From Acidobacteriota bacterium (GTDB lineage: Bacteria; Acidobacteriota; UBA890; WLXD01): DNA of 64,000 nt. The translations under genes were made by a program, and so were the position numbers. Position 1 is the stretch's first letter. Every line of letters begins with the position of its first letter. Below are positions 12,192 to 41,908 of the stretch, one piece after another. The notes under the pieces are model-generated. The model was given only the letters and a program-made list of their open reading frames with translations. It did not search any database and was not told where the DNA came from. The stretch lies in contig CAXWPL010000004.1 of assembly GCA_963666215.2 (NCBI GenBank), positions 544,001 to 608,000 on the forward strand, in the 5' to 3' direction.

Positions 12192-12206
12192 GTGAAGCGT
12201 AACTAC

Positions 12207-13382: not shown

Positions 13383-13404
13383 TTACTTCCTTCCTTTCGA
13401 TTCC

Positions 13405-14022: not shown

Positions 14023-14106
14023 CGCTACGTCCGTGTATTACTAACGATAGCAGGAATCGTGCCATGTGTAAACACGGACCTGAGAGCAGAACGAGGCGCA
14101 AGGGGA

Positions 14107-16432: not shown

Positions 16433-16605
16433 GACAGAAACCGAACAGACCCTCAAACGAGCCGAGATTCGCGTGGAGGCTTGGACTCGTCGTAAGTCCT
16501 TACGTGTCAATAATTGACAAGCGACACACGGCCTCTTTTGCTCGGATCTCACGCTCCCCGGAAAGGGAAGGTTTCGGGGAAGGTGGGAGAGAGTAGCGGC
16601 TGTAA

Positions 16606-17172: not shown

Positions 17173-18763
17173 CCGCCCGATCCTGACGCTGATGTCGAAG
17201 GTGCTCGGCAACCAGTTCGCCGGCGAGACGTGGGACGGCTGGCGTGTGCTGTTGAAAGCCATGTTCGCTCTGCCCCTCACCGACGCCGAGCTCGAGGCAT
17301 TCGAGGAGCTCACGGGCAGGTCGACGGCGCCGACCGTTCCGGCCCGCGAGGTGTGGGCGATCGCCGGTCGGCGCGGTGGCAAGAGCATCATCGCGGCGCT
17401 GGTGGCCGTGTACCTGACCACGTGCCGGACGTACAAGCTCGCTCGAGGTGAGGTAGGCACCTTCATGGTGATCGCCGCCGACCGCCGACAGGCGCGTGTC
17501 GTAGCTCGATACATCAAGGGTCTGCTCCACTCGACGCCGGTGCTCGAGCAGCTCATCGCACACGAGACGAAGACGGAGATCCAACTCGCCAACGGCCTGT
17601 CGATCGAGATCCATTCGGCAAGTTTCAGAAGCGTGCGCGGCTACACGGTTGTCGGCGCCATCCTCGACGAGATCGCGTTTTGGCCGACGGACGACGCAGC
17701 GAATCCGGACCGCGAGATCCTCGCCGCGTTGCGTCCCGCGATGGCCACCGTGCCGGGGGCGATGTTGCTATGCGTGTCGAGCCCCTACGCCCGCAAAGGC
17801 GAGCTCTACCGGGCACACCGTCATCACTACGGAGTCGACGGTGACGTGCTGGTGGTACAGGCCGAGACACGTCTGCTGAATCCAGCCGTTCCCCAGGAGA
17901 TCATCGACCGGGCTTATGAGGCGGATCCGGTTGCCGCCGCGGCCGAATACGGGGCGCAGTTCCGCAGTGACGTCTCTGAGTTCATTTCCCGCGAGGTCGT
18001 CGATGGCTGCACAGTGCCCGGGCGGCACGAGCTACCGCCCGTGCGCGGCGTGTCATATGTCGCCTTCATCGATTTCGCCGGAGGCTCCGGGCAGGACTCC
18101 GCCACGCTGGCCATCGCGCACCTTGAGAAGCGGGACGGACGCAGCGTAGCGGTACTGGACCTGGTGCGAGAGGTCCGGCCGCCGTTCTCTCCGGAGCAGG
18201 TGTGTCGCGACTTCGCCGGCGATCTGAAGCGCTACCGGGTCACCCGCGCGACAGCCGATCGCTACGCTGCCGACTTCGCGACAGAGGCGATGAGACGGCA
18301 GGGGATCGACCTCAAGGCGGCAGACAAGGCGAAGGCCGATCTGTACCGTGAGTTCTTGCCTGCGCTCAACAGTGGCGGCATCGAGCTGCTAGATCTGCCG
18401 CGACTAGCAGCCCAGCTCGGTGGCCTCGAGAGGCGTGTGGCCCGTGGTGGCCGCGACAGCATAGATCATGCTCCCGGCGGCCACGATGACGTCGCCAACG
18501 CTGTCGCCGGTGCGCTGGTTGCGATAGCGGAAGGGAAGCGCCGGCGCTGGGGCATCGTCCTGAGCGCAAGAGAGACCGCCGCGACGGGTTGCGCCGATAC
18601 GAGCTCGCTCGCCGAGCGCGCACGACAACTCGGCGTCAGTGGCAGTTGGGATGAAATGTTCCGCGCCGTGGCACGTGCCCACGGGGGCGAGCAACAGCAG
18701 GCCGGAAGCTCGGCAGAAGAAGAATTCATCCCCGGCGGACCGCAGCGCATCGGGATGCTCTGA
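17165..18763 (+). CDS. terL: Terminase large subunit
   Basis: AGRRGGKS Walker A, ILDEIAFW Walker B, VSSP coupling motif, nuclease acidic residues FID...D and HDD. Confidence 0.85.
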   Translation: MSSRPILTLMSKVLGNQFAGETWDGWRVLLKAMFALPLTDAELEAFEELTGRSTAPTVPAREVWAIAGRRGGKSIIAALVAVYLTTCRTYKLARGEVGTFMVIAADRRQARVVARYIKGLLHSTPVLEQLIAHETKTEIQLANGLSIEIHSASFRSVRGYTVVGAILDEIAFWPTDDAANPDREILAALRPAMATVPGAMLLCVSSPYARKGELYRAHRHHYGVDGDVLVVQAETRLLNPAVPQEIIDRAYEADPVAAAAEYGAQFRSDVSEFISREVVDGCTVPGRHELPPVRGVSYVAFIDFAGGSGQDSATLAIAHLEKRDGRSVAVLDLVREVRPPFSPEQVCRDFAGDLKRYRVTRATADRYAADFATEAMRRQGIDLKAADKAKADLYREFLPALNSGGIELLDLPRLAAQLGGLERRVARGGRDSIDHAPGGHDDVANAVAGALVAIAEGKRRRWGIVLSARETAATGCADTSSLAERARQLGVSGSWDEMFRAVARAHGGEQQQAGSSAEEEFIPGGPQRIGML

Positions 18764-18764
18764 A

Positions 18765-19133
18765 ATGACGAAGGCGCATGCAACGCTGTCGGCCAGCATA
18801 GGCTCACCGGCGAAGAAGTCGCCGCACGTGTTGAAAGCGGCGTTGAAGGGCATTCTGTCGCGACCCACGCGCTGGCACCTGCGCCGAGTCGGCAAGTTCC
18901 CGGAGCCGATCAAGGCGACTGCCGAGCGCTCCCTGCACTGGGCCACAGACATCAACGCCTGGATGGATGACCCGCGGGAGTGGGGCGCGGAAACACGGGC
19001 GGGGGACTTCGTGAGTCGCCCTCGTCGCGGCGGATGGTTGGTAACTTGCCCGTGCTGCGGGGCGAACGAGGGGGCGGAGTTCGCGGACATTTGGGCAGGC
19101 GCAGAACTGAGCTCTTCTGCGAGGACGCAATGA
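18765..19133 (+). CDS. AlpA-like regulator
   Basis: GILSRPTRWHLRRVGKFPEPIK...W...DINAWM matches the AlpA pattern. Confidence 0.55.
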   Translation: MTKAHATLSASIGSPAKKSPHVLKAALKGILSRPTRWHLRRVGKFPEPIKATAERSLHWATDINAWMDDPREWGAETRAGDFVSRPRRGGWLVTCPCCGANEGAEFADIWAGAELSSSARTQ

Positions 19134-21508
19134 GCTTCACGTGCGTCGACGTCGCTCGGGCCGCGGGATTGGAGAAGGGCCGTCGCGTCGGCGCGGAGAG
19201 ATTGTTCCGGTGTTGCCAGCATGACGACACTCGGCCCTCTCTGTCGATCAATGAGCGCAAGAACCGGTGGATTTGCGGGCCGTGTGAGGCTGGTGGCGGG
19301 GCCTGGAAACTGGCGGCGTTCCTTGGTGGCTTCGATCCGGACGACAAGCAGGCCGTACTCTCGTGGCTCCGCGACCACGATCTGCTTGATGGCGAGCGGG
19401 TCTCGTCGAAGTTCGTTGCCACTCACGACTACACGGACCACGCCGGTGAGCTGCTGTTCCAGGTCGTGCGCCTGCGGCCCAAGTCCTTCCGACAACGGCG
19501 TCCGGACGGCAACGGCGGGTGGGTGTGGAACGTCGACGGTGTGCGCCGCGTGTTGTACCGGCTGCCCGAGCTTGGCACGGCCACGGTCGTGCACATCACC
19601 GAGGGAGAAAAGGACGCCGACGCACTTCACGGCATCGGTCTCACGGCCACATGTAACCCCGGGGGTGCGGGGAAGTGGCGGGACGAGTACACGGAGTCCT
19701 TCACTGCCGAGCACCAGGTCGTTGTCTTGCCGGACAACGACGACGCCGGTCGCCGGCACGCCGAGACGGTGGCCGCATCACTGCACGGTCAGGTCGCGTC
19801 GGTGAAGGTGCTCCAGCTGCCGGACCTAGCTCCCAAGGGGGATGTCACGGACTTCATCAACGCGTGCAGAGACGCGGAGGAAGCTGCCGAGCGGCTTGCC
19901 ACCATAGCGAATGGGGCGGATCAATGGGAGCCGCAGGCTGCCGACGAACCGACTGTGGAGGACCGCTGCACAACCATCGAGATCCGGCCCGACCTGACTG
20001 GCGTAACCGATGAGGCCATCGACGCGATAGCCGCGCAGCCGAGCCTCGGAGTCTACGTCCGCGGCCGCCAACTCGTGCGCGTCGCGCGGGACGGGTCTCC
20101 GCCGGAGTGCTGGCTGGAGCGATGGCCCGGGTCTCCGGTGATCGTTCCCATGGCGAGCGCACAGGTACTCGACGTCCTCGACCGAGCCGCCGCGTGGGTG
20201 AAGTGCGACGGCCGCCGCAAGGAGTATGTTGCCGCGATACCGCCATCGTGGGTCGCGCAGCAGGTGGGTGCAAGGCTGGAGTGGCCGCTGCCGTACCTGG
20301 AGGCGGTTACCGAGACGCCGACCATCCGGTCTGACGGGTCGATCCTGGAGACGCCGGGGTGGGACCAGGCGTCCCGTCTCCTATACGAGCCGATCCCGGG
20401 AGCAGCGACGTGGCCGCCGGTGCCGGAGCAACCGACTGGGGAGGACGTACGCCGTGGCATCGCGATGCTGCGGGACCCATTGGAAGACTTCCCTTTCAAA
20501 GCGGAATCGGACGGTGCGGCCGCCATCGCGGTCATTCTGACTCTGTTGGCGCGGCACCTCATTCACGGGCCGGTTCCGTTGATGGCCATTCGGGCGCCGA
20601 CGCCGGCGACCGGCAAAACGCTGTTGGCCGACGTTATCGGGATCATGGGCACAGGGCGTGTCCCGCCCGTTATGACGATGACCTTCGAGTCGGAGGAGCT
20701 GCGGAAGCGGGTTACCTCCCTTGCGGTCGAGGGTGCTGCGCTAATCCTCCTCGACAATGTGTCGGGCACCCTTGGGTCCGACACCCTAGCCGCCGCGCTG
20801 ACGGCGACCGACTGGGAGGACCGCATCCTCGGGACGAACACGGTTGTCCGCGTGCCGCTGCGCGTGGTGTGGATGGTGACCGGCAACAATCTCGGCTTTC
20901 GTCGCACGCTCGGACGGCGTGTGATCCCGATCGACCTGGACGCGGGGGTGGAGCAGCCGGAGGACCGGGTCGGATTCCGCCACGCGGACCTGAGGGGGCA
21001 CGTCCGCGAGCGCCGGCCGCACCTGGTGACCGCGGCCCTGACGATCCTGCGAGCGTTTCACCTAGCAGGTCGGCCGGCGCACGGGGGACCACGCATGGGC
21101 AGCTTCGAGGCCTGGGATGACCTGATCCGATCCGCGGTCATCTGGGCCAGTTTGGCCGACCCTGCGTCCGCGGATCCGGAGCACGGACGGGGGCGAGTAC
21201 GGTCGCAAGCGGATGACGATACGGAGACGCTGCGGCTGCTGCTGCGCGCGTTGGCCGACGCCTTTCCCCACGGCGGGGGCTTTACGGCCGCGGACGTGGT
21301 GACCCGCTCGCGCAGTGACGAGGATCTAGCCGCTGCGCTGGACGTAGCGGCTGCGCCGAGACGTGGTGGGAAGCCGACCGGCCGATCGTTGGGGTACGCG
21401 TTCCGGAATGCAGTTGACCGACCGGTCAGAGGCCTCGTGCTGCGCCGGTGGATGCAAGAGCGATCTGGGGTTGTCTGGCTGGTCGAGAGCCCGGAGGAGA
21501 CGCGGTGA
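19130..21508 (+). CDS. Primase-helicase (CHC2 Zn finger, TOPRIM, P-loop ATPase)
   Basis: CCQHDDTRPS...CGPC; ITEGEKD; PDNDDAG; APTPATGKT; LLDN. Confidence 0.85.
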   Translation: MSFTCVDVARAAGLEKGRRVGAERLFRCCQHDDTRPSLSINERKNRWICGPCEAGGGAWKLAAFLGGFDPDDKQAVLSWLRDHDLLDGERVSSKFVATHDYTDHAGELLFQVVRLRPKSFRQRRPDGNGGWVWNVDGVRRVLYRLPELGTATVVHITEGEKDADALHGIGLTATCNPGGAGKWRDEYTESFTAEHQVVVLPDNDDAGRRHAETVAASLHGQVASVKVLQLPDLAPKGDVTDFINACRDAEEAAERLATIANGADQWEPQAADEPTVEDRCTTIEIRPDLTGVTDEAIDAIAAQPSLGVYVRGRQLVRVARDGSPPECWLERWPGSPVIVPMASAQVLDVLDRAAAWVKCDGRRKEYVAAIPPSWVAQQVGARLEWPLPYLEAVTETPTIRSDGSILETPGWDQASRLLYEPIPGAATWPPVPEQPTGEDVRRGIAMLRDPLEDFPFKAESDGAAAIAVILTLLARHLIHGPVPLMAIRAPTPATGKTLLADVIGIMGTGRVPPVMTMTFESEELRKRVTSLAVEGAALILLDNVSGTLGSDTLAAALTATDWEDRILGTNTVVRVPLRVVWMVTGNNLGFRRTLGRRVIPIDLDAGVEQPEDRVGFRHADLRGHVRERRPHLVTAALTILRAFHLAGRPAHGGPRMGSFEAWDDLIRSAVIWASLADPASADPEHGRGRVRSQADDDTETLRLLLRALADAFPHGGGFTAADVVTRSRSDEDLAAALDVAAAPRRGGKPTGRSLGYAFRNAVDRPVRGLVLRRWMQERSGVVWLVESPEETR

Positions 21509-24202: not shown

Positions 24203-24456
24203 TGGCGGTTGGGCAGGTGGCGCGTTAGCGCCATCGTAGGGGCAGCGGCAACAACGGAATCGTAACCGTGTGCGACCAAGAACTGCACTACTAGACCCCC
24301 TATTCGGCTTTGATCATCTTGGATTCTTCCCTATGGTCGTGCCTGGCAAAAGGTAGCGACCGGGTCTTGTATCGCAACCGCACCAGCACGTGACCGTTGC
24401 TGGAGCGAGGGACGAGCTCCTCTTGGCTAGCGAGCTCAACCACAGGAGAGGCAAGC

Positions 24457-25209
24457 GTGAACGACACGGGGGGCGCGGCCCCTGGCTCCATCCATTCGTT
24501 GGTTCCCGACCCGGAGGCCATGCTCGCGCTTGAGCCCGAGGAGCTCGCCGGTGTCCTGATGGAACACCTCAACTCTCTCCCTGCCTCCGAACAGAGAAGC
24601 CTAAACCGATACAACTTCAGTCTCCGGCACACAGTTCGAGACTATCCAGAGGACGCGCAGGACGAGCTGAGTCTGGCCCTTATGGAGGCGTGGGTCTGGC
24701 TTGAACGTGAGGGGCTCCTGGTGCCGAAGCCTGGGTCCGCGGGTGAGTCGGTAGTCATCTCGCGACGCGGTCAACGGCTGCGGACACGCGATCAGGTGCG
24801 CTCTTACCGTTGTGCGAACCTGCTTCCGCGTGGCCAGCTTCATCCGAGAATCGCGCAGAAGGTGTGGGCGTTGTTCCTCAGGGGCGACTACGATACGGCG
24901 GTGTTTCAGGCATTCAAAGAGGTCGAAGTGCGGGTCCGGGAGGCCGCGGAATGTGCAGACACGGACATCGGAGTCGCTTTGATGCGGAAGGCGTTCGTGA
25001 CAGGCGGTGCTCTGGCGGACGCTGAGGCGCCGAAGGCGGAGCAGGATGCGCTCGCTCATCTTTTTGCCGGCGCCATCGGGTCCTACAAGAACCCCCATAG
25101 CCACCGTAGCGTGACCATCGAACGAGCCGAGGCCGTGGAGATGATAGTGCTAGCCAGTCACCTACTCGGCATTGTGGACAAGCGTTCAGCCGACGATTCG
25201 GATGCTTAG
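24457..25209 (+). CDS. TIGR02391 (Ymh-like) family protein
   Basis: LHPRI...YDTAVFQAFKEVEVRVR...GVALMRKAF...LFAGAIGSYKNPHSH. Confidence 0.8.
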   Translation: MNDTGGAAPGSIHSLVPDPEAMLALEPEELAGVLMEHLNSLPASEQRSLNRYNFSLRHTVRDYPEDAQDELSLALMEAWVWLEREGLLVPKPGSAGESVVISRRGQRLRTRDQVRSYRCANLLPRGQLHPRIAQKVWALFLRGDYDTAVFQAFKEVEVRVREAAECADTDIGVALMRKAFVTGGALADAEAPKAEQDALAHLFAGAIGSYKNPHSHRSVTIERAEAVEMIVLASHLLGIVDKRSADDSDA

Positions 25210-25317: not shown

Positions 25318-27447
25318 ATGAACCACAGCGAGATCACGAGCTTCATCTGGGGCGTGGCGGACCTGATCCGTGACACCTTCAAGCGAGGCAAGTACCAGGA
25401 CGTGATCCTGCCGCTCACCGTGCTGCGGCGCCTCGACTGCGTGCTGGCCCCCACCAAAGGGCAGGTGCTGGCGGTCCAGGCCAAGTACCGGGGCAGGATC
25501 GAGAACCTCGAGCCGCAGCTTCGACGCGCCTCCGGCTTCGCGTTCTACAACACCTCCCGCTACGACTTCGATAAGCTCCTCGCCGACGCGTCCCACATCG
25601 CTCAGAACCTGCGTAACTACATCGCAGGGTTCAGCTCCAACATGCGTGAGGTGCTGGAGAAGTTCGACTTCGACAACACCATCGCCAAGCTCGACGAGGC
25701 GGGACTCCTGTTCCAGGTCGTGCAGCGGTTCGGCGATCCGAAGGTGAATCTGCACCCGGACCTGGTCGACAACTTCACGATGGGCACGATCTTCGAGGAG
25801 CTCATCCGGAAGTTCAACGAGGCGCTGAACGAAAACCCAGGGGAGCACTTCACTCCCCGCGACGTTGTCCATCTCATGGTGGACCTGTTGCTGGCTGGCG
25901 ACGAGCAACGGCTGCGCACCAAAGGGGTCGTGCTGAGCGTCTACGACCCGTGCTGTGGGTCGGGCGGCATGCTCACCATCGCCAAGGAGCACATCAACGT
26001 CGGAGAAAGGCGCGAGGGCGAACTCTGCGGCAGCGCCGTGAACCCTGATGCCGACATTCACCTGTTCGGCCAGGAGGTGAACCCGGAGACCTTCGGCATC
26101 TGCAAGTCCGACCTGTTCATGAAGTCGGAAGACGGCCGCGACGCGGACAACGTCCTGTTCGGCAGCACGCTCTCCAACGACCGGCACGCCAGCACAACGT
26201 TCGACTACATGATCGCCAATCCACCCTACGGCAAGGACTGGAAGCGCGACCAGGACGCGGTGCGAGCCGAGCACGACCGGGGAGACGCCGGCCGCTTCGG
26301 TGCGGGGTTGCCGCGGATAAGCGATGGCCAGCTGCTGTTCCTGCTGCACATGCTCGCGCACTCCAAGGAGCAAGCTCAGGGCGGCTCGCGGGTCGCGATC
26401 ATCATGAACGGCTCGCCGCTCTTCACCGGCGATGCGGGCAGCGGTGAGAGCGAGATCCGCCGCTGGATCCTCGAGAACGATCTGCTGGAAGCGCTGATCG
26501 CACTGCCCGAGCAGCTGTTCTACAACACGGGCATCGCGACCTACGTCTGGGTGCTCACGAACCGGAAACGGCCTGAGCGACGCGGCAGAGTCCAGATCAT
26601 CGACGCCACCTCGTTCTGGGTCCCACTGCGCAAGAGTCTGGGTGCGAAGCGTCGCGAGGTTCCGGTCGAGCGAAAGGAGGAGGTCCTGGGGCTGCTGGCG
26701 GAGTTCGAGGATGGCGCGACCCGCAAGGTCTCCCAGGACGGCGAAGAGCACGAGGTTGTCGTCAGCCGCGTCTATCCGACCACGCACTTCGGCTTCCGCA
26801 AGATCACGGTGGAGCGTCCGCTGCGGCTCGACTTCCAGGCCAGCCCCGAACGGATCGCACGGCTCGAAGAGGAGCGCGCTTTCGTGAGCCTGGCGGTGTC
26901 ACGCAAGAAGGGCGAAGCGAAAGCGAAGGACGAGGAGGCGGGCCGGAAGCAGCAGGCCGAGATCCGGGCCCTGCTGAAGAATCTATCGGCCAAGCTGTTC
27001 CTGGAGCGTGCGGTCTTCGAGGACGAGTTTTCCCAGGCGGCCCAAGAAGCGAAGCTCAAGCTAGCTGCTCCCATCAAGAAGGCAATTTTCTCCGCGTTGT
27101 CTGAGCGCAACGACGAGGCAGAGATCTGCCGGGACCGGGAGGGTCGCCCTGAGCCTGATCCCCAGCTTCGCGACACGGAGAGCGTGCCCCTCCTGGAGGA
27201 TGTTGAGTCGTTCTTCGAGCGGGAGGTGAAGCCGCACGTTCCCGACGCCTGGATCGACACGAAACGCCGGGATGCGCGGGATGGACAGGTCGGGCTCGTG
27301 GGCTACGAGATCAACTTCAACCGGTACTTCTACGAGTACCGACCACCCCGCCCGCTGGAGGAGGTACAAGCCGACATCCGCGCCATCGAGAGAGAAATCG
27401 TCGAGGCTCTGGGTACCTTGACGAAGTCATCGGGGACAACGATGTGA
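25318..27447 (+). CDS. hsdM: Type I R-M methyltransferase subunit
   Basis: GEHFTPR, YDPCCGSGGML, ANPPY motifs. Confidence 0.95.
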   Translation: MNHSEITSFIWGVADLIRDTFKRGKYQDVILPLTVLRRLDCVLAPTKGQVLAVQAKYRGRIENLEPQLRRASGFAFYNTSRYDFDKLLADASHIAQNLRNYIAGFSSNMREVLEKFDFDNTIAKLDEAGLLFQVVQRFGDPKVNLHPDLVDNFTMGTIFEELIRKFNEALNENPGEHFTPRDVVHLMVDLLLAGDEQRLRTKGVVLSVYDPCCGSGGMLTIAKEHINVGERREGELCGSAVNPDADIHLFGQEVNPETFGICKSDLFMKSEDGRDADNVLFGSTLSNDRHASTTFDYMIANPPYGKDWKRDQDAVRAEHDRGDAGRFGAGLPRISDGQLLFLLHMLAHSKEQAQGGSRVAIIMNGSPLFTGDAGSGESEIRRWILENDLLEALIALPEQLFYNTGIATYVWVLTNRKRPERRGRVQIIDATSFWVPLRKSLGAKRREVPVERKEEVLGLLAEFEDGATRKVSQDGEEHEVVVSRVYPTTHFGFRKITVERPLRLDFQASPERIARLEEERAFVSLAVSRKKGEAKAKDEEAGRKQQAEIRALLKNLSAKLFLERAVFEDEFSQAAQEAKLKLAAPIKKAIFSALSERNDEAEICRDREGRPEPDPQLRDTESVPLLEDVESFFEREVKPHVPDAWIDTKRRDARDGQVGLVGYEINFNRYFYEYRPPRPLEEVQADIRAIEREIVEALGTLTKSSGTTM

Positions 27448-28700
27448 TCAGCGAGTCTCCAGCAACACCTCGCTACCCGAAGTACCGCAGCGCGGGCATC
27501 GAGTGGTTAGAAGAAATCCCCAGCCACTGGGATGTGAGCCCTTTGTTCTTGGTCTCTAAGGAGAACGACGCCCGTAACCACCAACAGGTCGAGAGCAATG
27601 TACTTTCCCTGTCGTATGGTCGAATCGTGCGCCGAGATGTGAGCCTCCATCACGGTCTCCTACCGGAGTCTTTCGAGACGTACCAGGTATTGCAGCCTGG
27701 CGATATTGTCCTGCGCTTGACGGATCTTCAGAACGACAAGCGGAGCCTGCGCGTTGGGCTTGTTCCCGAGCCGGGGATCATCACGTCCGCATACGTTGGG
27801 TTAAGTCTCCGCGATTCACTGGAGTCGCGGTTCGCCTACTATCTGCTGCACTCCTACGACGTGACGAAGGTCTTCTACCGGCTGGGCGGAGGTGTCCGGC
27901 AAACGATGAAGTTCGCGGATCTAAGACGCCTCCCTATCGTTCTTCCGCCAGCCCAGGAACAGCACGCCATCGCCGATTTCCTGGACCGCGAGACGGCGAA
28001 GATCGATGGGTTGGTGGCGAGCAAGGAGCGGCTGATCGAGCTACTTCAGGAGAAACGCACCGCCCTGATCACCTCTGCCGTCACCCGAGGCCTGGACCCG
28101 AACGTCCCCATGAAGGATTCCGGCATCGAGTGGCTGGGGGAGATCCCGGCGCATTGGGAGGTAATCCGCACAAGATTCCTCTGCGACATGACCACAGGGG
28201 ACAAGGACACGCAGGACGCGATGGAGGAAGGGGAGTATCCCTTTTTTGTCAGATCCGACAACGTCGAACGTCTACCCACCTATACATTCGACGGTGAAGG
28301 GGTCCTTACGTCGGGTGACGGCGCTGGCGTGGGCAAGATATTCCATCACTACATTGGCAAGTTTGATTTCCATCAACGAGTCTACTTGTTCTGTCATTTT
28401 CGGCGCGTTGTAGGGCGCTTCTTCTACTATTTCGTCAAAGCCAATCTCTGCAAAGTCGTTCTGGCCCTCTCGGCTAAATCCACCGTTGACTCGTTAAGGC
28501 GACCAATGCTCCAGGACTTCCCGGTCGCGGTCGGGCCCGAGCAAGCAGAGATCGTCGCGTTCCTCGATAGAGAGACGGAGAACATCGACGCCCTCACCGC
28601 CAAAGCCCACCAAGCCATCGCCCTGCTCAAAGAATTCCGCACCGCGCTGATCTCCGCAGCGGTCACCGGCAAGATCGACGTCCGGGGACAAGCGGCATGA
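27444..28700 (+). CDS. hsdS: Type I R-M specificity subunit
   Basis: Two TRDs with conserved SGIEWLGEIPAHW repeats and AVTGKIDVR end; GTGA overlap. Confidence 0.95.
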   Translation: MISESPATPRYPKYRSAGIEWLEEIPSHWDVSPLFLVSKENDARNHQQVESNVLSLSYGRIVRRDVSLHHGLLPESFETYQVLQPGDIVLRLTDLQNDKRSLRVGLVPEPGIITSAYVGLSLRDSLESRFAYYLLHSYDVTKVFYRLGGGVRQTMKFADLRRLPIVLPPAQEQHAIADFLDRETAKIDGLVASKERLIELLQEKRTALITSAVTRGLDPNVPMKDSGIEWLGEIPAHWEVIRTRFLCDMTTGDKDTQDAMEEGEYPFFVRSDNVERLPTYTFDGEGVLTSGDGAGVGKIFHHYIGKFDFHQRVYLFCHFRRVVGRFFYYFVKANLCKVVLALSAKSTVDSLRRPMLQDFPVAVGPEQAEIVAFLDRETENIDALTAKAHQAIALLKEFRTALISAAVTGKIDVRGQAA

Positions 28701-31700
28701 GCCCGGAGGTCTCCGAGCAGGCCTTCGAGGAGGCGATCGAATGCGCGCTGCTGCGAGACGGACTCGACGCGCGCCCGCACGATGCGACGGCAGTGAGCGA
28801 GTCGCCGCCCGAACACGACGATGAGCCGGTGCCGGGCGGCTACCGCAAGCGTCGGCCGGAGGACTACGACCGCGGCCTCTGCCTGATTCCGACCGACGTC
28901 GTCGACTTCCTCCTGGCCACCCAGCCCAAGGAGTGGGACAAGCTCAAGCAGCACCACGGCGCTCACGTGAAGGTGCGCTTCCTGAGCCGGCTGTCGCGCG
29001 AGATCGGCCGGCGGGGGGCACTCGATGTACTCCGCAATGGCGTCAAGGACTCAGGCTGCAGGTTCCGGCTCGCTTACTTCCGGCCCGCGAGCGGGCTCAA
29101 CGAACAGCTGCAGCGCCTTCACGCGGCCAACCTCTTTTCCGTATCCCGCCAGCTTCGCTTCAGCGAGCAGAGCGAGGAGAGCCTCGATCTCGCGCTGTTT
29201 TTGAACGGCATCCCCATCTTCACGGCCGAGCTCAAGAACCCGCTCAACGGCCAGGACGTGCAGGATGCCATCCGGCAGTATCGGCACGACCGTGACCCGC
29301 GGGAGCCGCTCCTGTCCTACGGGCGCTGCCTTGCCCACTTCGCCGTGGACCCGGAGCTGGTGTTCGTGACGACGCAGCTGTCCGGGCCCGGGACTCGTTT
29401 TCTACCCTTCAACCAGGGGCGCTTCGGCGGCGCGGGGAACCCACCGGTCCCGCCCACCCGTCCGGGCTTTCCGACCGACTACCTGTGGGAGCAGATCTGG
29501 GCCCGGGACAGTGTCCTGGACCTGCTCCGTCAGTTCATTCACGAGGTGCAGGAGGAGGACGATGCCGGACGCAAGACCGGCAAGCGCTTCCTGATCTTCC
29601 CGCGCTACCAGCAGCTGGACTGCGTGCGCCGCCTTGTGCGCCATGCGCGAGAGCACGGCACCGGCGAGCGCTATCTGATCCAGCACTCTGCGGGCAGCGG
29701 CAAGAGCTTCACGATCGCCTGGCTCGCCCACCAGCTCTCGGTGCTGCATGACCGAGAGGACCGGCGTGTGTTCGACTCGGTCATCGTGGTGACCGATCGG
29801 CGGGTGCTCGATCGCCAGTTGCAGCGCACCATCCGGCAGTTCGAGCAGACCCTCGGCGTGGTGGAAAACATCGACCAGACCTCCCGCCAGCTGCGCGAGG
29901 CTCTCGAGGCTGGCCGGACGATCATCGTCACCACGCTGCAGAAGTTTCCGGTGATCGCCGAGCAGATCGGCCAGCTCCCCGGCCAGCGCTTCGGAGTCAT
30001 CGTGGACGAGGCACATTCGTCGCAGTCTGGCGAAAGCACCAAGAGCCTCAAGGCGGTGCTCAGAGCAGGGAGCTCTGGAGCAGGCCGAACAAGAGGAAGT
30101 GGGTGCGCAGACCCCCGAAGAGGAGATCGACAACCGGGTCCTCGATGAGATCCAAAGCCGCGGACGGCAGCCGAACCTCTCGACGTTCGCCTTCACGGCG
30201 ACCCCGAAGCCCAAGACGCTGGAGCTGTTCGGCCACAAGCGGCCGGACGGGAAGTTCGAGCCCTTCCACCTTTACAGCATGCGCCAGGCGATCCAGGAGA
30301 GGTTCATCCTCGATGTGCTCGCCAACTACACCACCTACAAGGCCTACTGGCGCCTGCTGAAGAAGATCGAGCAGGATCCGCGGTACGACAAGAGCCAAGC
30401 GGAGTACCTGCTCAAGTCCTTCGTTGAGCTGCACCCGCATGCCATCCGCGACAAGATCGCCATCTGCGTGGAGCATTTCGCCGCGCAGGTCGCACGTGAG
30501 ATCCGCGGGCGGGCCAAGGCGATGATCGTGACGCGCTCGCGCCTCCATGCAGTGCGCACCAAGCTCGCTCTGGATCAGTATCTGGCCGACAAGGGCCATC
30601 CGTACAAGGCGCTCGTCGCCTTTTCCGGAACGGTGAAGGACCGTGGCGCCTCCTACACGGAATCGGGCATGAACTCCGCCGGGCAGGAGCGAGTGATCGG
30701 CGAGCGGCAGACGGCAGCCGAGTTTGACACGCCTCAGTGCCGCTTCCTGGTGGTCGCCAACAAGTTCCAGACCGGATTCGATCAGCCACTGCTGCACACG
30801 ATGTACGTGGACAAGAAGCTCGGTGGCGTGAACGCGGTCCAGACGCTGTCCCGCCTGAACCGCACCCACCCCGGCAAGAAGGGTGCGATGGTGCTCGACT
30901 TCGCCAACGAGGCCGAGGAGATCCGGAAAGCCTTCGAGCCGTACTACGAGACCACCCTGCTTTCCGAGGAGACCGACCCCAACCTGCTGTACGAGGTCCA
31001 GGGCAGACTATTCAACTACGGTGTGTTCGCGGCCGACGACGTCGATGCCTTCGGGCGGGTGTACTTCGACCCCAAGGGCACCCAGGACCGGCTGTACGCG
31101 GCACTGGAGCCGGCGCGACAGCGGTTTAACTGAGCTTGGTCCCGAGGAAGGAAGCGACTTCCGCGGCCAGCTCACCGACTACGCACGCCTGTACGCGTTC
31201 CTGTCCCAGGTGCTGACATTCGCCGACCCCGACCTCGAGAAGCTCTACGTCTTTGCCCGGCACCTCAGGCGCCTGCTGCCGGCCAGCCGTGAGGAGTTAC
31301 CTCTCGAGGTGCAGCAGAACATCGACATGGAGTCCTTCCGCATCCAGCAGACGAGCCAGGGACCGATCGCGCTGGAGCGGCAGGCCTGGCCGCTCGACCC
31401 TGCCGGGAGCAAGCCGCACAGTGGGGCCGGCGCGCAGGAGTTGGAGGCGCTCTCGCGCATCATCGAGGCGCTCAACGAGCGTTTCGGCCTGGACCTCGGC
31501 CCCGAGCACCGCGTCGCGCTCGAGCGCATCCGGTTGGCCCTGGACGAGGACGACGGGCTGGAGGCCAGCGCCCGGGTGAACACGCGCGAGAACGTGCGGC
31601 TGACCTTCGACCCCAAGGTTGAGGACAAGTTCCAGGAGTTCGTCGAGACCAACTTCGAGCTGTACAAGCGCATCACCGACGATGCGGACTTCGGCGGGGC

Positions 31701-32236
31701 GCTCAAGAACTTCCTGTTTGACGACTACATCCAGCGGCACCGACGAGCAGAGGAACTGCTCAAGCTCCAGGAGTCCAAGACGCTCGAGTTCAAGTCGAGC
31801 CTGCGCTGGAACCTGAAACAAGACCGCAAGGACGACAAGCACGTCACCCACGCGGCGCTCAAGAGTATCGCCGCGTTCCTCAACACCGAGGGCGGCGACC
31901 TGCTGATCGGCGTGGACGACGACCGCAAGGTTGTCGGCATCGAGCATGACCGCCTCGACAGCGACGATAAGTTCATGCGGCACTTGGCCCAGGTCGTGCG
32001 CAATGGCCTCGGTGACCGCGCCGGAACCTGCATCGATCCCAAGGCGCAGATCGTCGAGGGCAAGACCGTCTGCCTCGTGAGCTGCCAGCGGAGTCCCGAG
32101 CCGGTGTACCTGCGATGGGAAGGGTATGGAGAAGGCCGTTGACGGCGATCTGTACGTCCGCAGCGGCCCCGGTACGGTGCGACTTGGCAAGGAGGATGCC
32201 GACAAGTACGTCGCCACCAGATTTGGCGCGACGTGA
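28697..32236 (+). CDS. hsdR: Type I R-M restriction subunit with C-terminal Schlafen/AlbA_2 domain; three frameshifts (~30068, ~31127, ~32118)
   Basis: AELKN, QHSAGSGKS, VDEAH, FTAT, QTGFDQP, QTLSRLNR; then ESKTLEFK...AAFLNTEGGDLLIGVDDD; last frame ends YVRSGPGT...TRFGAT. Confidence 0.85.
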
Positions 32237-32575: not shown

Positions 32576-34684
32576 TCATCCCCAATGGGTCTGGATATAG
32601 GCATGTGCGGCCTGCGGATCTAGGGAGCGCGTTGTTGTATTCACGCGGATGAAGAGGCTGAGATCAGCCTTCCATTTGCAGAAAACGGCGTCCGGTGCCT
32701 TATCCACGTCGATGACAAAGACCGTTCGATCTCCGATGTCCTCAAAACGGCTCCGAATCAGACCTGAGTGCTCAGCGCCAAGGTGGTCGACGACAAGTGC
32801 TCCGATCAACTGCTCGAACTTATCCTTCGATCCGTCCAAGAGCTTCATATCTGGACCGATTCCGGCGACCGTTCCATCGTCTTCTACGCCTATCACTAGC
32901 GTCCCGCCTTCGGTGTTTAGGAACGCAGCTAGCGTCTTGAGTACCAAGAGCCGTAGCGCCGGATTCTTCTCGTTGCGTCGAATGTCCCATTGCAAGGTTG
33001 TCTTGAATTCGCGGCTGAGGCTCTCGCCAAGCTTGATGAGCTCAGTCACTGGCCGCTCACCGATCTCCTCTGGTTCTGTGATCAAGTCGGTCATGAAGTC
33101 GTTTAGCTTTGTCGCAATCAAATCGCGCCGCGCGGCCAGAAAGTCTTCATAGTGCGTTACTTCCCAGATCTCGGGACGCATCGGAATGAACTGCTTCGTT
33201 AGCGCTCCTGGATACCTCTCCTCGACCTCGTGCAAGTACTCGGCCGGTCGGCGATTCGACAGAGACCGATTGCTCTCGGCCGTAAGGAACCCCCGATTCG
33301 CGATCTCGTTCACCTTTTTCCGATCAAGATGGCTGCTGGAGTCGTAGAGCTCTTCATAGAGAACCGACTGCGGGAAAATGTGATGGCTGTGCAGGCGATA
33401 TCGACCGTCCAGTCGACTGGTGAGGGGCATACCGTTGAACCAGTCAATCCCACCTAGGGCCTTCGCGAGCAGGAGCGTCATTCGGTAGAGGGGATGTGCA
33501 GCGCCTCGGCCCTCGAAGTCTGCCGCCTTGACCTCGATGCGACCCCGCTGATCGATGATTTGCTCCCGGAGGCTCTCCCATGGAGCCATCTCGCGAACGA
33601 TAAGACTCAGATCGTGCTCCAATCGATTGTCGGTCTGGGCTGCATACCTTCCCCATGTATGAGCCGCGTACAACCAGTGAAGTGCGTTCTGCAGCGCTCG
33701 TTCGTCTGGGAACTTGCCCTCGTGAGTCGATAGATAAACGACTAGCGGAACGAAAATGTTGGTGCTGTTTACGTCCTCGGTTGACTGGATGAACGCCTTC
33801 TCAGGTAACAATCCAGCGAGGTAGTCAAGAATCTTTGAGAGTTGTGTCCAGCCCGCCTCAAGAACCTCGCGCTCCTTCGGGTGGATCGTCTCGAATAGCG
33901 CCCTCTGCGTGACAACACCCGTCAATGCTCGGGTCATGAAAGTGAGGTCGAAGTAGAAGCGTTGGGTATCAAGCCATTCGATCTTCTTCTTCATTTCTCG
34001 TCGCGCCGTAGGCCATCGGGCAGTGACGTGCGTCAACGCTAGATCAGCGTCTGTTAACTTCGTACCTTTACTGTTTACGCGATCGAAGATGTCGATTGCT
34101 TCGCCCAGGCTCGCGTGGGCAGGAACTATCTGCACAGGCAGATCGATGGACCGGATCCCTTTGAGAGTCTCGACGCGCTCGTTGAAGATTTGGGCGAGGC
34201 GCAGATGCTCGTCGGCGTCGTCAGCTTGATTCTGCGCGATCTGGAAGACGTTCAATGACGCGGAATCTGTGAATACGTCAACGACGCGCCGCCACAGAAG
34301 GTTCCCCTTCATCCGCGTCGGTTGGTAATACTGAAAGTCGCCGTCGGCAATGTTAAAGAACAAATCCCGCGGGTCGTAGGTTATATCTCGCTCACGGTAG
34401 TAGGGTGGGATCTGCCCTGAGATGAGAAGGAATAATGTTGTGAGACGTTGTTGGCCATCGAGGATTATGGATACCGTCCCGAGTGAGTCAGGTAGTTGGT
34501 CGACGTTCTTCAATTCTGGTGGTTCAGTTGTCTTCCAGAAAAGGACTCCGCCGACTGGATATCCTCGCGATAGAGACACCATTAGCTGTTTGGATTGCTC
34601 GCGTGTCCAAACGTACTCACGCTGGAATTCGGGAAGCACCAAGTTGTGGTTACGAATGTCATCTGTGAGTTCGGCGACTTTCAT
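32576..34684 (-). CDS. GmrSD-like (DUF262 plus HNH-like) protein with C-terminal Schlafen/AlbA_2 domain
   Basis: LPEFQREYVW, LDGQQRLT, FDRVNSKG, HHIFP...N; ESLSREFK...AAFLNTEGGTLVIGVEDDG. Confidence 0.85.
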   Translation of the reverse strand: MKVAELTDDIRNHNLVLPEFQREYVWTREQSKQLMVSLSRGYPVGGVLFWKTTEPPELKNVDQLPDSLGTVSIILDGQQRLTTLFLLISGQIPPYYRERDITYDPRDLFFNIADGDFQYYQPTRMKGNLLWRRVVDVFTDSASLNVFQIAQNQADDADEHLRLAQIFNERVETLKGIRSIDLPVQIVPAHASLGEAIDIFDRVNSKGTKLTDADLALTHVTARWPTARREMKKKIEWLDTQRFYFDLTFMTRALTGVVTQRALFETIHPKEREVLEAGWTQLSKILDYLAGLLPEKAFIQSTEDVNSTNIFVPLVVYLSTHEGKFPDERALQNALHWLYAAHTWGRYAAQTDNRLEHDLSLIVREMAPWESLREQIIDQRGRIEVKAADFEGRGAAHPLYRMTLLLAKALGGIDWFNGMPLTSRLDGRYRLHSHHIFPQSVLYEELYDSSSHLDRKKVNEIANRGFLTAESNRSLSNRRPAEYLHEVEERYPGALTKQFIPMRPEIWEVTHYEDFLAARRDLIATKLNDFMTDLITEPEEIGERPVTELIKLGESLSREFKTTLQWDIRRNEKNPALRLLVLKTLAAFLNTEGGTLVIGVEDDGTVAGIGPDMKLLDGSKDKFEQLIGALVVDHLGAEHSGLIRSRFEDIGDRTVFVIDVDKAPDAVFCKWKADLSLFIRVNTTTRSLDPQAAHAYIQTHWG

Positions 34685-37832: not shown

Positions 37833-38753
37833 CTAGCCGCCGATTCTTTGATACGCCATCTCGATGAACGGCTTGGCGGTGTCGAACTCCTCCACGGTCT
37901 TCACATAGAGGCCGAAATCGCCCGTGCCGTAGTGCCCCACCTCAGAGAGGTCTTTGAAGATGGGAGACGGCCCTTGCGTCTCCTTCGGATCGAGCTTGAG
38001 GAACAGCAGGACCTGCTTCTTTTGAATGCGCATACAGACGATGTTCTGAGTCGCTTTGTACGCTACGTAGAACTTCTTCGGGGCCTCCTGGATCGACGGA
38101 TCAAGCGAGAGGATGAACTCCTGGGCGGAGAGAGCAATCTCTCGGATGTGGGCCGGTTTGCCGGCGACATGCTCTTCGAAGGTGTTGCTGCCGGTCTGTC
38201 GAGTGATGGCGGCCTTCTGGCCAGCTGTAAGCCCCGCAGACGGGGTGTCCGGCGTGGTGGAGTCCAGTGATGACCGGAGTACCTCTTCTAGATACAGCGA
38301 CTGATTCTCGAACAACCGGTACGTCCATAACTCGAGATTAGCCCCCATGACCTGAGCCGCATATAGGTCGTACTTCTGGAAGGTCGGTGCGATGCAGATC
38401 ACCCGCACCGAAGACCAGTCAATCTCGACATCACCGATCGCGCTCCGGGCTGCCACCTCGAAGTCACCGCGGTGATCGTGAAGCCACGCCAGATAGAAAA
38501 GGCCCTGATTGATGAGGCTCGAGGACTCGATCTTCTTGTACTCCAGAATCACCGGGTGACTCTCCTCGGAGAGCGCCAGTGTATCGATGCGCCCGGCGTG
38601 TTGGGCACCGGTGCTGAACTCGGTGGCGACGAGCCGGCACTTGAACACCTCGTCGAGGTTGGCCTCGATCAGCCCCTGGAGTTCCTTCTCAGTTCGGAAA
38701 TTGGACTGTCCGACTCTCTCCAGCTTCGCCTCATGAAGCGTGAAAAGCGGCAT
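37833..38753 (-). CDS. NucS/DUF91-like PD-(D/E)xK nuclease fused to DUF5655-like domain
   Basis: EKELQ, GRIDTLAL, ILEYK, QGLFY; C-terminal KFYVAYK and GHYGTGD. Confidence 0.75.
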   Translation of the reverse strand: MPLFTLHEAKLERVGQSNFRTEKELQGLIEANLDEVFKCRLVATEFSTGAQHAGRIDTLALSEESHPVILEYKKIESSSLINQGLFYLAWLHDHRGDFEVAARSAIGDVEIDWSSVRVICIAPTFQKYDLYAAQVMGANLELWTYRLFENQSLYLEEVLRSSLDSTTPDTPSAGLTAGQKAAITRQTGSNTFEEHVAGKPAHIREIALSAQEFILSLDPSIQEAPKKFYVAYKATQNIVCMRIQKKQVLLFLKLDPKETQGPSPIFKDLSEVGHYGTGDFGLYVKTVEEFDTAKPFIEMAYQRIGG

Positions 38754-39092
38754 ATGGCCTCGTCTCCCTCTGTGAGTTCGAGCGTCGCCTTCGATTCCCA
38801 GGAGGGCAGCTCCTGGCAATTGGATGACTCACGGTATGCTGGCGCGACCAAAATGATAACTGGGAGCAGCTGGAAGAATCCCTAGAGTTGTCCCGAGGAC
38901 GCAGTTCCAGGCAGGTGGATTCACATGCGCGCGCATGTCCTGCGCCCGATCGCGGGAAGTCGAGGCCAGCCGAGCCTCACTGCTCCGAGCGTCGAGGACG
39001 ACGACTTGGTAACGATCAGGCGGCCGCCCGCGCGCTCAATGGGATCGCGCCGGGGGCACAGCCGATCTTTTACCTCAGTGCACCGCCTTGCT

Positions 39093-39833: not shown

Positions 39834-40179
39834 TTAGGCATGGTTCCATCTGTCAGCAGCCGGCACGTGGAACTCTCGGTTGCCGCCGTGATCGCAGCGG
39901 GCCGTGAGCTCGATTTCGGAGGGTTTTTCTTGGCTTGTTTTCAGTCTGTAGGGCGGCCGGCCGTCCGGCCGTCCCAGGATATAGCGTGCCAAGCAAACTG
40001 TAGCTGGGGTCCGGGCCAGTCTCCCCGCGCCCGGGATCTCGTCCGGACGCTGGAGGCGATAGCGCCCAACCTCGAGCCCCCGGGGGCCGGCCGGGGACCC
40101 GGGGGGTGAGAGATATCCTGTCACAGTCGGACTCTCCCAGCCGAAACTCGTTCGAGCACTGGTGTCGGCGGGGATCTCC

Positions 40180-41770
40180 TAGGAAAGCGTGCTCGCTTCT
40201 TCGAATCCGGGACCTTCTCTCCGCTTGCACGGGTCCGTACCCAGGCTTCCGGTAAGTAGTCGAGATCTTGATCGGGATCCCAGACCTCGTCACCGATGAT
40301 CAGATAGCCGTCCGTGGCGTCTTCCCCGACATCCCCGGCCGCCCGGAACTCCCGAGGCACCAAACGGCCATCCGCCACAGAGACGCAGATGAAAGGATGC
40401 CCCGTGGCCCGGCTGAAGACGTTGGCGAAGATCGGCTTGTTGCTGTCGTCGTGCTTGTAGATCCCCGGCTCGAGCGTGATGAATCGCTCTTCACCCTGGT
40501 CGAGTGTCGTATAGACCGACCCAGTCTGAGCGATGAACTGATGCAGCTTGAAGGGAAGAAGCGTGTAGCGGGACCCCCGGTCCTGAATCTGCTGATTGAC
40601 GGCACTGACCCATTGAAGGGTCTCCTCCAGAGCCTGGCGGCATCTGCCTTGTGATTCGCCGGACTCCCCGGCCAAAGCCGCGACGACGTCCTCGAATCCC
40701 ATGGGCGTTCGCCGAACGAGCCGCCCGTCTCGCTCCTCGAGCGCGATGCGATTCTCGAGCCAGACCGCCACCGGGTGCTTCCGTAGTTCAGCTCCTCCTG
40801 CCGCGGCATCGATTGGGGCGCCGATGGCTGCGGAGAGTTCCTCGGGGGAAAACTGAGTCTCGGCCCGGGCAAGAGACCTCGTCAGCGTTTCGTCAACGAT
40901 TTGGCCCGCTTGGAACGGCCGGCCGAACACCGTGCTCGCCACGCGCGCGACTTCCGATCGCTGCGACTCGGCGTTGCCTATCGAGACCATCGTTGCGGAG
41001 GTCCCGATGCAGCAGACCGACCGCTTGCATTGAGCCTGGATGCGACGGATGAGCATCGAGACGTCCGCGCCCTGCCTGCCGCGGTACGTGTGCAGCTCGT
41101 CGAAGACCAGGTAACGGAGGTTCGCGAAGATCGCATCTCGGATGGGCCGCTCCTGCACCCGGGTGAGGAGGAGCTCGAGCATCATGTAGTTGGTAAGGAG
41201 AACTTGCGGGGGCTCCTCCCGCATCTCTTGCCGCCGCTCCTCCTTCTCCTGGCCGGTGTACTGGCCGAAGGTGATGGGAAATGGACGGCCTGTACTCTGC
41301 TCGTAGTTGCCCTTGTAGGTATTGAATTCGTTTGTCTGCGAGTTAATCAGCGCGTTCATCGGATAGACGACGACCGCCGCCACTCCCTCGGTCTCTCGAT
41401 TGGCGAGCAGGTGATTGAAGATCGTGCCGATGTAGGTCAGCGACTTGCCTGAACCGGTCCCAGAGGTGACGACGAAGTCGGTACCGGCCACGCCCAGTTG
41501 AATGGCCTCGAGCTGGTGGCGGTATAGCGAGTACCCACCGAAGATGTGCCGGGCGTCGTCATGCAGCAGTCCTGAGCCGATGACTTCTTCGACGGAGCCC
41601 CCCTGCTCGTAGGCGGGATTGAACTGCAGCAGCGGCTGCGGCCAGAGACGACCCTTGGACAAGGAGTCTTCGACGTTCCGCGCAATTTCCTCGTCGGAGA
41701 TGTTGATGAAGCTGCGGATGTATTGCGCATAGTCATCTACGATCCGTCTGTGGGTGTCGAAGACATTCAT
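40180..41770 (-). pseudogene. YprA/DUF1998-type DEAD/DEAH helicase, N-terminal part only
   Basis: SGTGSGKS, YPMNALINSQ, TNYMMLELLL, FDELHTY, TSAT; ends before the second RecA domain. Confidence 0.8.
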
Positions 41771-41790
41771 TGCTCGACCTGTAGTCAGGT

Positions 41791-41908
41791 TCAGGGTCTA
41801 AAGACCGCGTCAGAGTGCCACTCCAAAAAATTGCGGTCGGGCCGGTTATTCGAACTCGGCGGCACCCAGATTCGCTGCTTGTGGTACGGGTAGTAGGGTT
41901 CGCCGTTG
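41791..41908 (-). pseudogene. C-terminal remnant of an HNH putative restriction endonuclease
   Basis: Hand translation NGEPYYPYHKQRIWVPPSSNNRPDRNFLEWHSDAVFRP*, cut by the IS3. Confidence 0.65.

Follow-up and report, generated by a model that had tools for sequence, protein, structure and literature searches.

The 64,000-nucleotide stretch of an Acidobacteriota genome analyzed here (the window; contig CAXWPL010000004.1, positions 544,001 to 608,000) carries a type I restriction-modification (R-M) operon, hsdM-hsdS-hsdR, whose consecutive genes overlap by 4 bases. The hsdR gene encodes an ordinary type I R subunit with a single Schlafen (AlbA_2) domain directly behind its normal C-terminus. In the window it is translated as four pieces (A to D, in frames 2, 0, 1 and 2) rather than from a single uninterrupted frame, there being three one-base insertions. 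Coordinates of the operon and of the other features discussed are collected in Table 1.

Table 1. Features of the window (positions count from its first base; aa, amino acids).
Feature	Position	Strand	Description
Ser/Thr kinase with PD40 repeats, split	9204-10568 and 10477-12000	+	two overlapping frames; PD40 repeats run across the overlap
tRNA-Arg(TCT)	12116-12191	-	adjoins the tyrosine integrase
Tyrosine integrase	12210-13382		followed by HTH_17, DnaB-N/AAA_25 and Toprim proteins (region 12116-21505)
Ymh-family (PF09509) predicted HEPN RNase	24397..25209	+	directly 5′ of hsdM; Pfam Hypoth_Ymh E 8e-26
hsdM	25318..27447	+	709 aa, intact; Pfam N6_Mtase 9.4e-54, HsdM_N 3.7e-25; PADLOC MTase_I PDLC03029 E 2.8e-267, end-to-end
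hsdS	27444..28700	+	418 aa, intact; Pfam Methylase_S twice; PADLOC Specificity_I 7e-107, residues 8-417, likewise end-to-end
hsdR (pieces A-D)	28697-32236	+	3′ of hsdM and hsdS
hsdR piece A (frame 2)	28697..30071	+	PD-(D/E)xK nuclease, Walker A, DEAH; Pfam HSDR_N, SWI2_SNF2, ResIII
Frame break 1	30068..30074	+	one extra base: GGGAGCTC in the window, GGGA-CTC in the intact relative
hsdR piece B (frame 0)	30072..31127	+	motor, second half; Pfam T1R_D3-like 1.9e-11
Frame break 2	31125..31131	+	one extra base in a locally divergent patch (blastn gap)
hsdR piece C, first part (frame 1)	31129..31770	+	HsdR C-terminal helical region to the canonical end
Schlafen/AlbA_2 nuclease domain	31771..32233	+	Pfam PF04326; interrupted by break 3
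Frame break 3	32117..32122	+	GGG in the window, GG in the intact relative
hsdR piece D (frame 2)	32120..32236	+	final 38 residues of the Schlafen domain and stop codon (translation)
GmrSD-type (DUF262) restriction protein with Schlafen/AlbA_2 end	32576..34684	-	702 aa, intact, convergent with hsdR
DUF5655 protein	37833-38819	-	PADLOC candidate PDC-S18, E 1.5e-100
DEAD/ResIII helicase fragment	40124-41797	-	
AIPR protein	46939-48252	-	
PQQ-dependent dehydrogenase	52910-54082	+	matches profile positions 250-595 of 595 only; adjoins a Mutator-family transposase

A Schlafen domain behind the HsdR C-terminus

The marks of an HsdR, namely an N-terminal nuclease motif, a superfamily 2 (SF2) motor with a second RecA-like domain and the hsdM/hsdS context, were all found. 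In piece A, Pfam detected HSDR_N (E 1.2e-14), SWI2_SNF2 (6e-22) and ResIII (9e-15); the PD-(D/E)xK residues are D164 (at 29186) and E178-x-K180 (29228-29236), and the motor motifs are a Walker A GSGKS (at 29693) and DEAH (at 30005). At residues 215-326 of piece C the SLFN_AlbA_2 profile matched with 62.9 bits (E 5.1e-17), above its curated cut-off of 25.3. This was the sole Pfam match in the added part, where neither a HEPN nor an ABC domain was detected by Pfam. The catalytic E-x4-E-x-K motif, ESKTLEFK (31771-31794), lies 14 codons 3′ of LFDDY (31714-31728) with no stop codon in between, and GVDDD, with the invariant Asp of the Schlafen site, follows downstream (31909-31923).

Of the non-fused HsdRs, the one closest to the window protein (L003) shares 66% identity with its residues 1-1010, has no AlbA_2 domain and ends with ∼55 low-complexity residues past its matching WLFERF. 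Others show 40-45% identity, and two of ∼40% (L006 and L007) end 6 and 11 residues past the equivalent motif. Ordinary relatives end at the point equivalent to LFDDY; therefore the initial annotation was correct in reporting an HsdR C-terminus that runs without a stop into a Schlafen/AlbA_2 domain with its E-x4-E-x-K pattern, as Pfam, the translation and the non-fused HsdRs agree. The span given for it there (31130-32236) covers the fused part, but only the last third of hsdR.

An AlphaFold2 model of the last 178 residues (predicted local distance difference test 84.2, predicted template modelling score 0.83) yielded 26 Foldseek matches at E≤0.001. Those listed were all AlbA_2/Schlafen structures, among them 3lmm, the SAMD9 tRNase domain (9o0d), SAMD9 with DNA (7ksp), SLFN13 (5yd0), and SLFN11, SLFN14, SLFN12 and SLFN5. 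When the domain profile was compared with the sequences of solved structures, all 14 matches were Schlafens. The window motifs ESKTLEFK...GGDLLIGVDD aligned with ESQSIEFKQ...GGSLFIGVDD of SLFN11 and with ESASIEFKQ...GGYLLFGVDD of the SLFN13 entry. The Ex4ExK motif is described as catalytic and essential for tRNA cleavage in the article text of PMC13056530.

Spread and conservation of the fused gene

When longer proteins were searched with piece C, 3016 of 8000 scored candidates matched at E≤0.001. Among the best 120 protein clusters (82-99% identity), 98 are 1176-1186 residues long and carry HSDR_N, the motor, T1R_D3-like and SLFN_AlbA_2, and the remaining 22 are shorter. Public annotation of the family reads mostly 'DEAD/DEAH box helicase' or 'type I restriction enzyme R subunit'. 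Within 41 related genomes, intact fused copies were found in G008 and, as a pair with 99.94% mutual identity, in G002.

For the locus counts the last 178 residues served as query, with one genome per species, and the best 80 of 146 relatives (73-100% identity over those residues) were used. By label or taxonomy, 62 of these loci belong to several classes of Acidobacteriota; the other 18 are labelled Gammaproteobacteria, Spirochaetota, Chloroflexota, Rhodothermales, Gemmatimonadaceae, Methylomirabilota, Thermodesulfobacteriota, Polyangiaceae, Deltaproteobacteria or Armatimonadetes. A second scan, with the Schlafen motif, returned at least 563 loci; 51 of its best 80 are HsdR fusions (12 at the same places as in the first scan), and it adds the labels Latescibacterota, Actinomycetota, Phycisphaerae, Nitrospiraceae, Alphaproteobacteria, Pelomicrobium sp. 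G1 and Cyanobium sp. Morenito 9A2. Taken by label, the fused hsdR loci of both scans fall into ∼17 phylum-level groups, and for at least two carriers, the Pelomicrobium and the Cyanobium, the label does not mark a metagenome bin. At 57 of the 80 related loci HsdS was matched upstream of the fused hsdR, on flanks too short to show most hsdM genes.

One uninterrupted full-length gene was present at 59 of the 80 loci of the first scan. Eleven are broken internally (five by one frame change, two by an internal deletion, and four as C-terminal remnants), and the remaining 10 mostly run off contigs (nine flagged). Intact homologs, on whose existence the initial annotation had made its reading depend, are numerous at these loci as among the best clusters. 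In one of the two deletion alleles (L061), HsdR residues 1-99 run in frame into 927-1177, so that a miniature protein with a Schlafen tail is encoded; in the other (L040), residues 1-534 are joined to 982-1178 in different frames.

Within the 59 intact genes the Schlafen-site residues E1030, K1032 and D1074 are invariant and E1025 is kept in 58; across all 80 loci the same three are found in 80/80 and E1025 in 79/80. The DNA nuclease residues D164, E178 and K180 and the motor residues K336, D437, E438 and H440 are each retained in 59/59 intact genes. In 300 random pairs (298 or 299 usable per region), the median ratio of non-synonymous to synonymous substitution rates (dN/dS) was 0.13 in the Schlafen domain, the lowest of the protein, 0.17 in the nuclease and motor and 0.22 in the C-terminal helical region. 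The median dS between members was 0.54-0.74 despite their different classes and phyla, which indicates horizontal spread.

These comparisons of sequences and of a predicted fold indicate that (i) the fused hsdR forms a widespread, horizontally spread family of 1178-residue proteins; (ii) the added domain is under strong purifying selection and, by its fold, aligned motif and invariant residues as well, is supported as a genuine Schlafen nuclease domain; and (iii) the protein has two conserved nuclease sites, the DNA nuclease triad and the Schlafen site. The claim of the initial annotation that a Schlafen active-site pattern is tied covalently to a type I subunit is thereby borne out by the fold, the alignment with SLFN11 and SLFN13, conservation and selection. 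By analogy with the characterised bacterial and mammalian Schlafens, we infer a latent RNase activity of the added domain, with tRNA as its most likely substrate.

A search seeded with a divergent member extended the picture to other restriction enzymes. Among the 120 proteins listed, 80 are HsdR with AlbA_2 (down to ∼40% domain identity; one source annotates many of them as type I R subunits), 13 are Eco57I/N6_Mtase-type (type IIG) and five GmrSD_N-type (type IV) proteins with AlbA_2, and nine are HsdR with an S24 domain and no AlbA_2. In P0164 of Acanthopleuribacter pedis (1329 residues), HsdR and AlbA_2 are followed by Peptidase_S24, a self-cleaving domain of the LexA kind. Extra modules at the C-terminus look like a general theme among restriction enzymes.

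The nearest relatives of the domain outside HsdR (P0168-P0270; loci L111-L189) are open frames of 405-551 residues, mostly Bacteroidales by label, with ∼250-280 N-terminal residues that have no Pfam match and the Schlafen domain at the C-terminus. Domain relatives are also fused to RNase HII, TPR and S1 domains. A stand-alone, R-M-linked ancestor of the Schlafen domain found no support: the single-sequence locus search for one returned nothing, and in the second locus scan above, which was alignment-based, the other 29 of the best 80 loci were of the 405-551-residue type, with a weak methylase match within 7 kb at one of the 29.

Frame breaks and surroundings of the window copy

The window hsdR was compared by blastn with L001, an intact copy in a related genome (95.6% identity over 3538 bases). 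The alignment has exactly three gaps, near 30072, 31131 and 32117, and at each of them the window carries a single additional base. The 1178-residue protein P0004 matches the window as four collinear stretches (residues 1-473 in piece A, 458-810 in B, 810-1142 in C and 1141-1178 in D), with frame changes at residues ∼458, 810 and 1141. At break 1 an extra G follows GGGA. The extra base of break 2 is either a T of TTT or the T of AAC-T-GAG, and the DNA around it (31097-31246) has 17-18 mismatches per 150 bases to both relatives. The initial annotation had reported three single-base frameshifts in short homopolymers; three one-base insertions they are, but the third alone lies in a plain homopolymer. 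Programmed frameshifting or phase variation was rejected, since intact relatives read straight across all three sites.

Short-read contigs of four public metagenome runs (X8, X9 and X10 among them) were compared with the window hsdR and its flanks. They match hsdS (up to 561 bases; X8, X9 and X10) and the DNA 3′ of hsdR (up to 846 bases) with 0-1 differences. The extra base of break 1 was left out in the full contig depth of X8 (26.8/26.8, at the placements 30072 and 30074) and X10 (18.4/18.4), and that of break 2 was left out at full depth in all four runs (12.1/12.1, 20.5/20.5, 6.5/6.5 and 6.8/6.8). The base of break 3 was left out of the bridging contigs of all four runs; other contigs diverge at 32118 and, in our reading, continue AAGGGCC, i.e., after two G. 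Private codon changes in the window lineage (41 synonymous to 23 non-synonymous) resemble those of two intact lineages (39:21 and 46:25), the corrected window frames contain no stop, and pairwise dN/dS to the relatives is ∼0.19, so that the codons give no sign of relaxed selection in the window lineage. Word depth over hsdR reached 700-3700 in some bins of the run metagenomes, compared with 8-18 on the hsdS flank (three runs covering the flank), and the window hsdR is a mosaic of alleles, with for example 0-1 mismatches to L031 over 29447-29896.

We consider it probable that the frame breaks arose as consensus errors when long metagenome reads were assembled across a gene with many near-identical versions in the community, for which the excess depth from related alleles and the allele mosaic provide the local setting. 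Several observations weigh against this view. When 51 long conserved genes (27,163 residues) were compared with a related genome, three apparent frame changes were seen, all of which look like neighbouring genes on inspection; indels are thus rare elsewhere in the assembly, and three breaks in 3.5 kb need a local cause. The exact hsdR sequence was present in no public run (best share of sampled words, 0.56), the bridging contigs differ from the window at 2-3 further letters and may be other alleles, and 11 of the 80 related loci are truly broken. The same facts, together with the position of the operon in a lower-GC mobile region with insertion sequence (IS) elements and other cut genes, would suit a pseudogene in which three true insertions have freshly inactivated the gene, leaving the locus without restriction or Schlafen activity in this organism. 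We judge this unlikely. There is no excess of substitutions or of non-synonymous changes and no stop in the corrected frames, and three neutral indels are improbable because no neutral substitutions accompany them; all contigs across 31131, as well as those across 30072/30074 in X8 and X10, are without the extra base, whereas the flanks match perfectly at similar depth; and the gene is over-covered many-fold by related alleles. The caveat of the initial annotation, that the frameshifts are likely sequencing errors and possibly decay, was apt, and the run contigs and codon changes favor errors.

The window genome (G000; 4.65 Mb in 5 contigs, completeness 91.7%) gave no match for rpoB (TIGR02013) or rpoC (TIGR02386), which are thus uninformative on assembly quality; their region seems to be missing from the assembly. 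For uvrA it has two intact genes and one paralog in two frames. In one of the G002 operons (L191 and L192), hsdM is spread over two frames that switch near residues 152-156, and in the other only its residues 403-698 are present; both intact hsdR-Schlafen copies of G002 may thus stand beside a broken methylase, or there may be assembly errors there too.

The gene directly 5′ of hsdM also matched the PADLOC profiles Aga_HEPN (6e-6) and PD-Lambda-3_B (2e-6). Ymh proteins are described in the text of PMC3710099 as a HEPN family found in R-M operons. A Ymh gene precedes hsdM at one of three related loci (L193, 86% identity; absent from L191 and L192), and its candidacy as a fixed operon member was rejected in favor of an accessory one. 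The convergent GmrSD neighbor (Pfam GmrSD_N 2.1e-31 and SLFN_AlbA_2 7.9e-14; PADLOC HEC-05 1.1e-46) consists of GmrSD_N, an HNH-like HHIFPQ...N region and then SLFN_AlbA_2. It stands beside the fused hsdR at one of the 80 loci (L033), was therefore rejected as a conserved partner, and is a separate system. DUF262-Slfn (EcoSlfn7), of the same kind, is reported in the text of PMC13056530 to defend E. coli against phage. The syntenic GmrSD copy of G008 lacks the DNA of window 32650-33343, that is, the last ∼250 residues including the Schlafen domain, and the remainder is 98-99.5% identical. Three predicted RNase modules therefore lie together at the window locus: Ymh, HsdR-Schlafen and GmrSD-Schlafen.

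DNA downstream of the GmrSD gene is 99.5% identical to G008, compared with 95.7% for hsdR, which marks the island as a recent mosaic. The lower-GC stretch around the operon (0.58-0.64, against 0.65-0.67 at the window ends) contains the tRNA-Arg gene, the integrase, replication genes, several transposases and other defence candidates. An integrative element with the defence genes as cargo probably has one of its ends at the tRNA-Arg/integrase region. The DUF5655, helicase-fragment and AIPR genes are interspersed with IS elements (DDE_Tnp_1, Transposase_mut and IS240-type). Relatives of the split kinase are mostly open frames of ∼870-1100 codons, and several paralogs in G000 and related genomes are also short. 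The first half of the PQQ-dependent dehydrogenase is absent or in another frame.

Candidate roles and known systems

A type I complex contains two HsdR subunits, and it cleaves DNA upon stalled translocation or the collision of two motors. Our working proposal, held tentatively and by analogy with other Schlafen systems, is that the Schlafen RNase fires upon HsdR engagement of foreign DNA. The restriction complex would be the sensor of unmodified foreign DNA; as HsdR engages such DNA and translocates, and especially where two motors meet, two Schlafen domains would be brought together and become active. Foreign DNA would then be cut and translation slowed simultaneously, with the Schlafen domain as a second, translation-directed effector of the restriction enzyme. 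Partner-controlled Schlafens have been described: in RorSlfn5 an Ig-like domain is the sensor and the T5 tail assembly chaperone the trigger (text of PMC13056530), in Cash the Schlafen is switched on by cA4-bound Csx15 (text of PMC13462974), and in SLFN-pAgo it is triggered by target DNA recognition (text of preprint 10.64898/2026.05.29.728809). The latter two texts describe paired or stacked Schlafen domains as active forms. The same domain ends complete type IIG and type IV enzymes, and therefore a trigger common to restriction enzymes would be the most economical switch.

One property of the family weighs against this proposal: all 59 intact genes keep the DNA nuclease, and had the two effectors answered the same signal, one of them might have been lost in some lineages. 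Strict co-retention of both nuclease sites would fit a back-up role at least as well. The initial annotation had envisaged such a role, a covalent guard analogous to PrrC; in this scheme the working complex silences the Schlafen RNase, which fires when a phage disables restriction, so that infection is aborted. Its triggers could be a DNA mimic (Ocr or ArdA), a Stp-like peptide, Stp being the phage trigger of PrrC, or the loss or proteolysis of the complex. A type I-tied RNase has a precedent in PrrC-EcoprrI, and conservation of the DNase and Schlafen sites, both at 59/59, is what non-redundant first-line and back-up effectors would lead one to expect. The domain sits directly behind the HsdR C-terminal helical region, which contacts the methylase core, and the S24 peptidase behind the Schlafen domain of P0164 hints at unmasking by proteolysis. 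Schlafen RNases beside bacteriophage exclusion (BREX) systems are termed back-up suicidal effectors in the text of PMC12839542. We regard a guard as a serious but less likely rival and rank it second, because the presence of the domain on type IIG and IV enzymes fits a common trigger better than the sensing of type I-specific inhibitors: these enzymes are not targets of such inhibitors, and each class would need its own sensing. In the texts on characterised Schlafen systems, moreover, the partner activates the nuclease by positive detection. The intact hsdR-Schlafen copies of G002 beside broken or truncated hsdM genes would be harmful if the free protein were active, unless the breaks are assembly errors.

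Both proposals presuppose an active RNase, and binding of DNA or RNA can be all that an AlbA_2 domain does. An accessory module that binds nucleic acids or is directed at DNA, for example by holding DNA ends or aiding DNA cleavage or complex assembly, would agree with the fold matches to DNA-bound SAMD9 (7ksp) and to 'DNA/RNA binding protein' entries (6rr9 and 7q3z), and some sources name members 'putative DNA binding domain-containing protein' or 'RNA-binding domain-containing protein'. We think this improbable. A pure binder would not need the four Schlafen-site residues, which are invariant or nearly so, and the prokaryotic Schlafens characterised in the article texts consulted all cleave tRNA. 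Returning to activation on foreign DNA, a wider form of it is conceivable, and we offer it with reserve: Schlafen-tailed HsdR, type IIG and type IV enzymes may all be dual DNA-and-translation effectors that fire on foreign-DNA engagement or oligomerisation, and the pairing of a motor with a Schlafen domain (cf. human SLFN11) may have arisen independently in bacteria.

It was only in 2025-2026 that bacterial Schlafens were established as antiviral tRNases, which leaves the activation of each as the question at hand. The putative switch here is a type I enzyme, among the best-understood bacterial molecular machines, with defined states: a methylated, hemimethylated or unmodified target, and a translocating, colliding or Ocr/ArdA-inhibited complex. 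The family thus makes it testable whether a restriction enzyme signals to translation, and whether the signal is that foreign DNA has been found or that restriction has been blocked. The window copy itself is modest news, being one more family member and one that reads as broken.

In the literature on Schlafen, AlbA_2 and restriction we found no description of an HsdR-Schlafen fusion; 'HsdR' does not occur in the texts of preprint 10.64898/2026.05.29.728809 and PMC13462974, whose figures and supplements may list it. Supplementary Table 2 of PMC13056530, which gives the domain compositions of pSlfn1-55, contains no occurrence of PF04313, PF18766 or PF04851. It holds 109 occurrences of DUF262 (PF03235) with Slfn, and one 516-residue fragment with T1R_D3-like and SLFN_AlbA_2, filed under pSlfn15 as 'P-loop_NTPase.pSlfn'. 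The prokaryotic Schlafens (pSlfn) RorSlfn5 and EcoSlfn7 resemble the window protein, according to the text of that article, in having a single AlbA_2 nuclease with Ex4ExK fused to a putative sensor module in defence islands, and tRNA cleavage by RorSlfn5 is demonstrated there. The window domain differs from them in its partner, an entire HsdR that brings a DNA nuclease and motor of its own and works in a three-subunit enzyme.

Schlafen domains swapped with or fused to R-M proteins are known from two other cases: Schlatpase, which includes a GHKL ATPase, is fused to HsdS in Poribacteria (text of preprint 10.64898/2026.05.29.728809), and cluster 3 Schlafens are fused to R-M methyltransferases (text of PMC13462974). 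In these the partner is a specificity subunit or methylase and not HsdR. The mammalian group III Schlafens SLFN11, SLFN13 and SLFN14 likewise join a Schlafen nuclease in one chain to a helicase-type ATPase, and their motif aligns and their fold matches. The dimer is the active form of SLFN11, which binds single-stranded DNA (text of PMC13462974). The group III proteins, however, have a two-lobed N-terminal module and a superfamily 1 (SF1) helicase, whereas the window protein has one lobe-sized C-terminal domain on an SF2 translocase with a PD-(D/E)xK DNase.

PrrC-EcoprrI, which is named the first antiviral tRNase in the text of PMC13056530 and is also cited in that of PMC3710099, shares with the window gene the physical coupling of an RNase to a type I enzyme and is a model for a translation-directed second line. 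PrrC is, however, a separate polypeptide with a HEPN domain and an N-terminal ABC-type ATPase, neither of which was found here; the window nuclease is a Schlafen, covalently fused, with no ATPase of its own. Of the PrrC-analogous guard, the covalent tie to a type I subunit stands, but membership of the PrrC family does not, and judged by its domains the window gene is PrrC-like in working at most. Over residues 1-1010 (HSDR_N, SWI2_SNF2/ResIII and T1R_D3-like) it is an ordinary HsdR, from which it differs by ∼165 extra residues that form the Schlafen domain. HsdR-Schlafen thus belongs to both the HsdR family and the Schlafen domain family, as a strongly conserved and unstudied fusion of the two.

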